Notes under the pieces: generated by a model
Database searches by the model: none
What the model was told of the DNA's origin: nothing
Seen by the model: only the letters and a program-made list of their open reading frames with translations
Assembly (NCBI RefSeq): GCF_055900595.2
Contig: NZ_CM148325.1
Length of the DNA: 64,000 nt
Strand: one strand, 5' to 3'
In this document: positions 873 through 4,150 of the stretch, one piece after another
How positions within the stretch are numbered: the stretch's first letter is position 1
How the letters are laid out: every line of letters starts with the position of its first letter
Translations under genes and position numbers: made by a program

Positions 873-906
873 CCGCGTGATGGCTGTCACGCGGTATTTC
901 GTTTCG
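873..906 (+). terminator. Probable intrinsic terminator after mdtP (stem ccgcgtga / tcacgcgg followed by T-rich run)
   Basis: Inverted repeat directly after the mdtP stop codon, followed by tatttcgtttcg. Confidence 0.4.
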
Positions 907-924
907 TCACGTCAAAACTGACGA
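904..924 (+). promoter_or_regulatory. Inverted repeat TCGTCA-N9-TGACGA, candidate FhlA-type upstream activator site for fdhF
   Basis: Perfect hexamer inverted repeat about 80 bp upstream of the sigma-54 promoter-like element; fdhF is known to need FhlA bound upstream. Assignment is inference. Confidence 0.35.
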
Positions 925-994
925 CAGCCTGTTTTTCGTCAGAGTTTTGAACAAATAGTGCCCGTAATATCAGGGAATGACCCCAAATAAAATG

Positions 995-1010
995 TGGCAT
1001 AAAAGATGCA
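995..1010 (+). promoter_or_regulatory. Sigma-54 (-24/-12) promoter of fdhF: TGGCAT-aaaag-ATGCA
   Basis: GG and GC dinucleotides at the canonical 10-bp spacing, about 50 bp upstream of the fdhF ATG; fdhF is an established sigma-54/FhlA-dependent gene. Confidence 0.6.
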
Positions 1011-1061
1011 TACTGTAGTCGAGAGCGCGTATGCGTGATTTGATTAACTGGAGCGAGACCG

Positions 1062-3209
1062 ATGAAAAAAGTCGTCACGGTTTGCCCCTATTGCGCATCA
1101 GGTTGCAAAATCAACCTGGTCGTCGATAACGGCAAAATCGTCCGGGCGGAGGCAGCGCAGGGGAAAACCAACCAGGGTACCCTGTGTCTGAAGGGTTATT
1201 ATGGCTGGGACTTCATTAACGATACCCAGATCCTGACCCCGCGCCTGAAAACCCCCATGATTCGTCGCCAGCGTGGCGGCAAACTCGAACCTGTTTCCTG
1301 GGATGAGGCACTGAATTACGTTGCCGAGCGCCTGAGCGCCATCAAAGAGAAGTACGGTCCGGATGCCATCCAGACGACCGGCTCCTCGCGTGGTACGGGT
1401 AACGAAACCAACTATGTAATGCAAAAATTTGCGCGCGCCGTTATTGGTACCAATAACGTTGACTGCTGCGCTCGTGTCTGACACGGCCCATCGGTTGCAG
1501 GTCTGCACCAATCGGTCGGTAATGGCGCAATGAGCAATGCTATTAACGAAATTGATAATACCGATTTAGTGTTCGTTTTCGGGTACAACCCGGCGGATTC
1601 CCACCCTATCGTGGCGAATCACGTAATTAACGCTAAACGTAACGGGGCGAAAATTATCGTCTGCGATCCGCGCAAAATTGAAACTGCGCGCATTGCTGAC
1701 ATGCACATTGCACTGAAAAACGGCTCGAATATCGCGCTGTTGAATGCGATGGGCCATGTCATTATTGAAGAAAATCTGTACGACAAAGCGTTCGTCGCTT
1801 CCCGTACAGAAGGCTTTGAAGAGTATCGTAAAATCGTTGAAGGCTACACGCCGGAGTCGGTTGAAGATATCACCGGCGTCAGCGCCAGTGAGATTCGTCA
1901 GGCGGCTCGGATGTATGCCCAGGCGAAAAGCGCCGCCATCCTGTGGGGCATGGGTGTAACCCAGTTCTACCAGGGCGTGGAAACCGTGCGTTCTCTGACC
2001 AGCCTCGCGATGCTGACTGGTAACCTCGGTAAGCCGCATGCGGGTGTAAACCCGGTTCGTGGGCAAAACAACGTGCAGGGTGCCTGCGATATGGGCGCGC
2101 TGCCAGATACTTACCCTGGCTACCAGTACGTGAAAGATCCGGCTAACCGCGAGAAATTCGCCAAAGCCTGGGGTGTAGAGAGTTTGCCAGCACATACCGG
2201 TTATCGCATCAGCGAGCTGCCGCATCGCGCAGCGCATGGTGAAGTGCGTGCCGCGTACATTATGGGCGAAGATCCGCTACAAACTGACGCGGAGCTGTCG
2301 GCAGTACGTAAAGCCTTTGAAGATCTGGAACTGGTCATCGTTCAGGACATCTTTATGACCAAAACCGCGTCGGCGGCGGATGTCATTTTACCGTCAACGT
2401 CGTGGGGCGAGCATGAAGGCGTGTTTACTGCGGCTGACCGTGGCTTCCAGCGTTTCTTCAAGGCGGTTGAACCGAAGTGGGATCTGAAAACGGACTGGCA
2501 GATTATCAGTGAAATCGCCACCCGTATGGGTTATCCGATGCACTACAACAACACCCAGGAGATCTGGGACGAGTTGCGTCACCTGTGCCCGGATTTCTAC
2601 GGTGCGACTTACGAGAAAATGGGCGAACTGGGCTTCATTCAGTGGCCTTGCCGCGATACTTCAGATGCCGATCAGGGGACTTCTTATTTGTTTAAAGAGA
2701 AGTTTGATACCCCGAACGGTCTGGCGCAGTTCTTCACCTGCGACTGGGTAGCGCCAATCGACAAACTCACCGACGAGTATCCGATGGTACTGTCAACGGT
2801 GCGTGAAGTCGGTCACTACTCTTGCCGTTCGATGACCGGTAACTGTGCGGCACTGGCGGCGCTGGCTGATGAACCTGGCTACGCACAAATCAATACCGAA
2901 GACGCCAAACGTCTGGGTATTGAAGATGAGGCATTGGTTTGGGTGCACTCGCGTAAAGGCAAAATTATCACCCGTGCGCAGGTCAGCGATCGTCCGAACA
3001 AAGGGGCGATTTACATGACCTACCAGTGGTGGATTGGTGCCTGTAACGAGCTGGTTACCGAAAACTTAAGCCCGATTACGAAAACGCCGGAATACAAATA
3101 CTGCGCCGTGCGCGTCGAGCCGATCGCCGATCAGCGCGCCGCCGAGCAGTACGTGATTGACGAGTACAACAAGTTGAAAACTCGCCTGCGCGAAGCGGCA
3201 TTGGCGTAA
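1062..3209 (+). CDS. fdhF: Formate dehydrogenase H (selenocysteine-containing, molybdopterin subunit of formate hydrogenlyase); 715 codons with in-frame UGA at 1479-1481
   Basis: ORFs 1062-1481 and 1530-3209 are in the same frame, separated only by TGA; the N-terminus has the Cys cluster (CPYCASGC) and reads VDCCARV-[UGA]-HGPSVAG, matching FdhF as I recall it. Confidence 0.95.
1479..1525 (+). other. UGA selenocysteine codon plus downstream SECIS stem-loop (SelB-binding recoding element)
   Basis: In-frame TGA at 1479-1481 followed by sequence able to form a hairpin (cacggcccatcggttgcaggtctgcaccaatcggtcgg); the reading frame continues for more than 570 codons beyond it. Confidence 0.85.
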
Positions 3210-3302
3210 TACAGTCCTTTCTACAGCCTCCTGTTGGAGGCTGTTTTTTTATCCATTCGAACTCTTTATACTGGTCACTCCCTACCCAATCGTATTATCA
3301 AA

Positions 3303-3993: not shown

Positions 3994-4150
3994 GTAGGCC
4001 TGATAAGACGCGGCAAGCGTCGCATCAGGCATTGATGTCGGATGCGGCGTAAACGCCTTATCCGACCTACAAAATCACGCTAAATCAGGCTATTGCGCAG
4101 TCTGGCGTAGGCCTGATAAGACGCGGTAAGCGTCGCATCAGGCATCCACA
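3994..4150. repeat. REP/BIME cluster (repeated gtaggcctgataagacgcg...cgcatcaggc palindromic units) between convergent yjcO and gltP
   Basis: Two near-identical copies of the aggcctgataagacgcggcaagcgtcgcatcaggca unit plus gccggatgcggcg...ccttatccg units; typical enterobacterial REP sequence. Confidence 0.7.

Follow-up and report, generated by a model that had tools for sequence, protein, structure and literature searches.

Positions 1062-3209 on the plus strand of the window (the whole stretch of 64,000 nucleotides analysed here) are, with hardly any room for doubt, the Escherichia coli fdhF gene with its programmed UGA-to-selenocysteine recoding site. As the best explanation of the data, this reading rests on an in-frame UGA codon, the identity of the encoded protein, the match to a SECIS model, the exact spacing and signature nucleotides of that element, and comparative evidence for selection on the RNA. 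SelB binding, the insertion of selenocysteine (Sec) and the efficiency of this insertion would carry over from the literature. SelB binding and SelB-dependent Sec insertion are known for the identical K-12 sequence, according to PMC4513850 and PMC8659212.

Reading frame and identity of the encoded protein

Translated in a single frame, 1062-3209 (+) comprises 716 codons, and the sole internal stop is the TGA at 1479-1481, which is codon 140. In the program-made list of open reading frames this stretch appears as ORF 1062..1481 (139 amino acids and the TGA) and ORF 1530..3209, both in the same frame. An earlier sequence-only reading had taken these for one gene, split by a single TGA, and had warned that a naive annotation would cut fdhF at codon 140. 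The translation agrees with the first point, and the mechanical ORF caller does exactly what the second foresaw, ending at 1481 and resuming at 1530. The RefSeq record with identical DNA holds one fdhF CDS that runs across the TGA. The gene and its recoded codon are thus placed as follows.

1062..3209, plus strand: fdhF CDS, formate dehydrogenase H (FDH-H); 715 codons and TAA, with UGA140 as selenocysteine; from TIGR01591, PDB identity and the RefSeq CDS
1479..1481, plus strand: UGA codon 140, Sec, the molybdenum ligand of FDH-H; aligned to X140 of the crystallised protein

The read-through product was compared with X placed at position 140. It is identical at 715/715 positions to E. coli FDH-H in PDB entries 1AA6, 1FDI, 1FDO, 2IV2 and 7Z0T, and the chain in 1AA6 likewise carries X, a non-standard residue, at 140. 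A comparison of the joined protein with FdhF across the UGA had been proposed as a check, and the alignment to residues 1-715 of 1AA6_A is gapless with 100% identity. The NCBIfam model TIGR01591 (Fdh-alpha) is matched with 1089 bits (cut-off 666.25), residues 6-685 covering profile positions 1-672 of 672, while TIGR01553 (FDH-N type) reaches 247.8 bits against a cut-off of 814. Since the first model passes and the second stays far below its cut-off, the protein is of the cytoplasmic 715-residue FDH-H type and not of the FDH-N type with about 1015 residues. Sec140, His141 and Arg333 are legible in the translation, as are the cysteines C8, C11, C15 and C42, in line with the complete identity to 1AA6_A. 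In FDH-H the former three are the catalytic residues and the latter four are the N-terminal 4Fe-4S cysteines.

An antisense ORF of 137 amino acids (1098..1511, minus strand) lies entirely within fdhF and spans the SECIS element. We found no support for it as a gene; codon bias on the other strand is its most likely origin.

Layout of the SECIS element

The Rfam model RF01988 (SECIS_2) matches 1474-1528 (+) with 87.1 bits (gathering score 70, E = 7.4e-19). The match spans model positions 1-55 of 55, agrees with every consensus position and occurs on the plus strand only; the Rfam scan returned no further SECIS element in the 64-kb window. Numbers such as U17 are counted throughout from the U of the UGA, taken as 1. 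The element is composed of the following parts.

1474..1528, plus strand: full SECIS (RF01988 SECIS_2); its outer helix 1474-1478/1524-1528 encloses the UGA; covariance-model match, with the same architecture in the minimum free energy (MFE) fold
1482..1492, plus strand: 11-nt spacer CACGGCCCAUC that separates the UGA from the upper stem-loop and also serves as the 5' arm of the lower stem, pairing with 1511-1520
1493..1509, plus strand: minimal 17-nt upper stem-loop GGUUGCAGGUCUGCACC, the SelB-binding part; from the sequence and the numbering of PMC8659212
1495, plus strand: bulged U17 in the upper stem-loop
1500-1503, plus strand: loop GGUC, with G23 at 1501 and U24 at 1502

In section 13 of PMC8659212 the fdhF SECIS is described as a hairpin of 40 nt whose essential part is a 17-nt upper stem-loop, nt 15-31, located 11 nt from the UGA; SelB contacts the bulged U17 and, in the apical loop, G23 and U24. 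PMC4513850 likewise has the stop as codon 140, assigns codons 141-153 to the SECIS and reports 30-40% recoding in vivo. All the published features, namely the spacing, the 17-nt stem-loop, U17, G23 and U24, are found at the expected positions. Thus, the classic bacterial SECIS arrangement that had been proposed after the TGA is borne out by a 55-nt model match above the gathering score. The suggested comparison with the fdhF apical loop within about 11 nt also holds, with a stem-loop that starts exactly 11 nt past the UGA and carries a GGUC loop and a bulged U. The span first given for the element, 1479-1525, was a fair approximation, but the Rfam element is 1474-1528 and begins 5 nt before the UGA, with its essential part at 1493-1509.

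Another SECIS model, RF01989 (SECIS_3), matched 1476-1534 in part; its 35.8 bits fall short of the gathering score of 63, and SECIS_3 was rejected as the family of this element. An Rfam match to SNORA27 (E = 9.9) was discarded as noise.

Folding energy

An imperfect hairpin is predicted for 1479-1525 with -14.9 kcal/mol, in keeping with the hairpin-forming segment that had been noticed after the TGA. Folding 1474-1528 yields -19.7 kcal/mol and adds the outer helix around the UGA. When compared with 200 dinucleotide shuffles, the stability of the hairpin is not exceptional (z from -0.9 to -1.2), and 25-37 of the 200 shuffled sequences fold equally well or better. We folded 1479-1525, 1474-1528, 1479-1520, the 17-mer and the reverse complement, and every z value lies between -0.7 and -1.2. 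The reverse complement folds nearly as well as the element itself (-16.3 kcal/mol, z = -1.04). Exceptional stability is a common expectation and not a criterion of the SECIS family; the real fdhF SECIS is imperfect and moderately stable. Because z is about -1, the case for the SECIS is a comparative and not a thermodynamic one, and the element is established by the Rfam score, by covariation and by the reduced synonymous variation seen in relatives.

Conservation of the element across species

One genome per GTDB species was scanned for TGYGCNCGNGTNTGACAYGGNCC, which encodes C-A-R-V-UGA-H-G-P, and at least 120 matches were obtained. Among the matches listed, the TGA lies in frame within a long FdhF-like ORF in 119/120, and one (L025) is spurious. 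The sources of these listed matches are Enterobacterales, Pasteurellaceae, Shewanella and two Coriobacteriia. The pattern itself fixes the TGA and CAYGGNCC, which is part of the lower stem, and these positions are therefore conserved by construction.

The 55-nt segments from the matches listed comprise 47 distinct sequences that align without gaps. Invariant in all 47 are columns 22 and 27-32, corresponding to 1495 and 1500-1505, that is U17 and the loop with the first closing pairs. U17, G23 and U24 are thus among the invariant nucleotides of these listed sequences, as is the loop from G22 to U24 as a whole. When the pairing is scored according to the literature structure, with 1495 bulged, 89.9% of the cells in the 47 sequences are paired, whereas partners slid by 1-3 columns are paired in 23-46%. 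The observed covariation score was reached by 0/500 shuffles of these 47 sequences from the listed matches, which are phylogenetically related, so that the shuffle control does not translate into a probability.

Compensatory changes in two apical pairs preserve the apical stem. In the 47 distinct sequences among the matches listed, pair 1496-1507 occurs as UA (34), AU (9) and CG (2), and pair 1493-1509 as GC (33), UA (10), UG (2) and CG (1). The register with 1496 bulged, which both the MFE fold and the Rfam consensus adopt, has 11 unpaired cells. We favour the bulge at U17 (1495) because of these unpaired cells and because 1496-1507 covaries. In Pasteurellaceae, Leu takes the place of His149 and the Val145 codon changes synonymously from GUU to GUA, and the pairing is kept. 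A compensatory change that alters an amino acid shows that the RNA constrains the peptide.

The codon usage of relatives points in the same direction. In 115 distinct 303-nt segments from the matches listed, codons 141-153 have a normalised synonymous codon entropy of 0.25, versus 0.67 in codons 100-137 and 0.70 in codons 157-200. The apical loop and the 3' strand of the upper stem are built from codons 146-149 (GCA GGU CUG CAC), and at these four codons the 115 sequences have zero synonymous variation. Conservation of the hairpin as such is partly confounded by the conserved peptide HGPSVAGLHQSVG that it encodes.

These data bear on the question of how the UGA is read. It could in principle be decoded without selenocysteine, for example by a near-cognate tRNA-Trp or by Cys, with a hairpin that merely slows the ribosome or hinders RF2, and a study from 1999, cited in PMC8659212, is said to suggest a minor Sec-independent route. 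We regard this explanation as very improbable. The crystal structures hold a non-standard residue at 140, the invariant nucleotides are the SelB contacts U17, G23 and U24 and go beyond what stem stability needs, and tRNA-Sec is nearly universal in E. coli. A 95-nt tRNA-Sec query matched 5424/5426 E. coli genomes, and the matched features are annotated as 'tRNA-Sec' in the listed records. A competing proposal is that the hairpin arose by chance or has a generic function in the mRNA, for instance in stability or pausing, and takes no part in the decoding of the UGA. This would explain why its folding energy lies inside the shuffled range and why the reverse complement folds too, but it is effectively refuted by a full-length and strand-specific SECIS_2 match of 87 bits, a spacing from the UGA of exactly 11 nt, an apical stem kept by compensatory changes and a suppression of synonymous variation that falls precisely on codons 141-153 and is complete over 146-149.

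The outer helix 1474-1478/1524-1528 is paired in 97% of cases in the 47 sequences. Its changes are one-sided, turning G-C into G-U or C-G into U-G, and none of those seen among the 47 distinct sequences listed is compensatory. That the UGA-enclosing outer helix and the lower stem are selected for a role of their own, perhaps in keeping RF2 away from UGA140 or in timing the refolding of the SECIS between successive ribosomes, seems unlikely to us. The alternative is that this pairing is a by-product of the conserved peptide; for the outer helix, conservation is confounded by the conserved residues V139, G155 and A156.

Two matches from Coriobacteriales and Slackia MAGs (Actinomycetota; L032 at 723-745 and L087 at 610-632) are FdhF-like Sec genes with a very different peptide after the Sec residue, HGPTVVGLIDTLGAGSMS. 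In both, the U corresponding to U17 is retained, as is the loop motif GGUCUG, at the same distance from the UGA, which suggests that the SelB recognition motif is conserved well beyond Proteobacteria.

Variation of fdhF within E. coli

The DNA of 900-3300 is 100% identical in eight RefSeq E. coli chromosomes, and fdhF was found in 5419/5426 complete E. coli genomes. Compared with K-12 MG1655, the gene in the window has 38 differences (98.2% identity), all of them synonymous and 0 non-synonymous, with 3 located upstream and 35 downstream of the TGA. K-12 and five other E. coli alleles differ from the window fdhF at 37-51 sites, nearly all synonymous and none in 1474-1528, and the TGA stands at the same codon in K-12 and in the five other lineages. 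Since all differences from K-12 downstream of the TGA are synonymous, the second part of the gene is translated and under purifying selection as coding sequence. The invariance of the SECIS in the seven E. coli alleles is uninformative, as a stretch of 55 nt is expected to contain just 1.9 variable sites; those closest to the element are 1391 and 1586.

The TGA might instead be an inactivating nonsense mutation, with fdhF a pseudogene that yields a 139-residue fragment and the downstream ORF a decaying remnant. This would agree with the break between 1481 and 1530 made by the mechanical ORF caller, and with the sizeable share of ribosomes that terminates at the UGA in vivo, given the recoding level reported in PMC4513850. 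Yet this explanation is effectively refuted, and we leave it a negligible chance: the TGA is kept in K-12 and five E. coli lineages and lies in frame in the 119 listed fdhF-like genes (found with a pattern that requires the TGA), the protein after the TGA is 100% identical to the crystallised enzyme, and the 35 differences from K-12 that lie downstream are all synonymous, unlike those of decaying sequence.

Several further observations were made in the E. coli collection. The fdhF allele of the window is unusual at the DNA level, with about 10/5420 E. coli records at least 99% identical to it. Among the seven alleles there are 75 variable sites, and 44 of them fall in 2018-2522, which is 24% of the gene; this cluster could be a recombined patch or a locally relaxed region. 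Four fdhF matches are on plasmids and not on chromosomes. Strain Ec-U18 has only the first 39% of fdhF, named 'molybdopterin-dependent oxidoreductase' and adjoining gltP, which suggests a deletion. Several RefSeq records label FDH-H 'formate dehydrogenase N subunit alpha', an inconsistency of naming.

Flanking regions and the rest of the window

In the RefSeq record with identical fdhF DNA the gene annotation reads mdtP, fdhF, yjcO, gltP and nrfG. Elsewhere the window agrees with that RefSeq chromosome at 99.98% identity and consists of ordinary E. coli genes from acs to pgi. Two candidate transcription signals flank the gene.

995..1010, plus strand: sigma-54-type -24/-12 motif TGGCAT-N6-TGCA, 52 nt upstream of the fdhF start; tentative
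3223..3251, plus strand: terminator-like hairpin and T-run, 14 nt past the fdhF stop; a stem of 9 pairs (6 of them G-C) followed by TTTTTTT; identified by its match to the consensus

The gene fdhF is transcribed from a sigma-54 and FhlA-dependent promoter, and the motif at 995-1010 is consistent with this control. It is the sole match in the window, where 0.91 are expected by chance, and the count is thus not significant. Another terminator-like hairpin lies at 872-895, just after mdtP and upstream of fdhF.

The yjcO-gltP intergenic region (3994-4145) contains two direct 39-nt REP-like copies that are 113 nt apart, and it overlaps an Rfam naRNA4 match at 3997-4067. Alignment offsets point to 113 additional bases in this region of NZ_CP098223.1, the closest complete genome, apparently one extra 113-nt unit; this unit is a copy-number polymorphism. 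Other naRNA4 (REP) matches are at 14615-14686, 49857-49927 and 61979-62050. Two small RNAs were matched by Rfam above their gathering scores, the Hfq-binding sRNA sraL at 21941-22080 (+) with 157 bits and the enterobacterial sRNA STnc430 at 61765-61913 (+) with 72 bits.

Proposed mechanism of recoding

The steps that we propose for this gene are those established for the Sec system of E. coli. On arrival at UGA140, a ribosome on the fdhF mRNA would have the upper stem-loop 1493-1509 positioned just outside the mRNA entry channel, 11 nt downstream. The C-terminal domain of SelB would bind 1493-1509 via the bulged U17, G23 and U24, and SelB-GTP would bring Sec-tRNA(Sec), with its anticodon UCA, to the A site in competition with RF2. 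This tRNA, the product of selC, would first carry serine, which SelA would turn into selenocysteine with selenophosphate supplied by SelD. The lower stem and the outer helix would be melted at the time of delivery because they fall within the ribosome footprint. Sec140 would then ligate the molybdenum of the bis-MGD cofactor, and translation would run on to the TAA at 3207-3209, giving the enzyme of 715 amino acids. The hairpin lies inside the reading frame and encodes residues 141-153, so that RNA structure and protein constrain each other.

The genes selA, selB, selC and selD are located outside the window, and a search of the 64-kb window for tRNA and tmRNA genes found none. Judging from the species, the Sec machinery is very likely present in the source genome. 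For K-12, the classical literature reports that read-through of UGA140 is abolished in selB or selC mutants.

Relation to known systems

UGA140 of fdhF and its SECIS have already been fully described as the founding example of bacterial selenocysteine recoding, and there is nothing new in the site as such. For annotation, it matters that ORF callers which treat TGA as a stop will split or truncate fdhF, and the gene must therefore be entered, following RefSeq, as one CDS carrying a selenocysteine transl_except. The comparative numbers confirm known facts and make a clear example of an RNA signal carried within a coding sequence.

The closest known system is the fdhF SECIS of K-12 (RF01988). 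The 55 nucleotides 1474-1528 are identical to those of MG1655, and the UGA, spacer, stem-loop, U17, G23 and U24 are alike. There is no difference in the recoding element, while the surrounding gene has the 38 synonymous substitutions described above. The genes fdnG and fdoG, for the formate dehydrogenases N and O, share with fdhF an in-frame UGA followed directly by a SelB-binding hairpin in the CDS of a Mo-bisPGD formate dehydrogenase. However, several lower-stem pairs of the SECIS_3 model are broken in the window sequence, and the score remains below gathering. A more distant parallel is found in the SECIS elements of eukaryotes and archaea, where an mRNA structure likewise redefines UGA as selenocysteine. 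These elements reside in untranslated regions and rely on other factors to act from a distance, whereas the element in the window lies inside the ORF, immediately 3' of the UGA, in the bacterial style.
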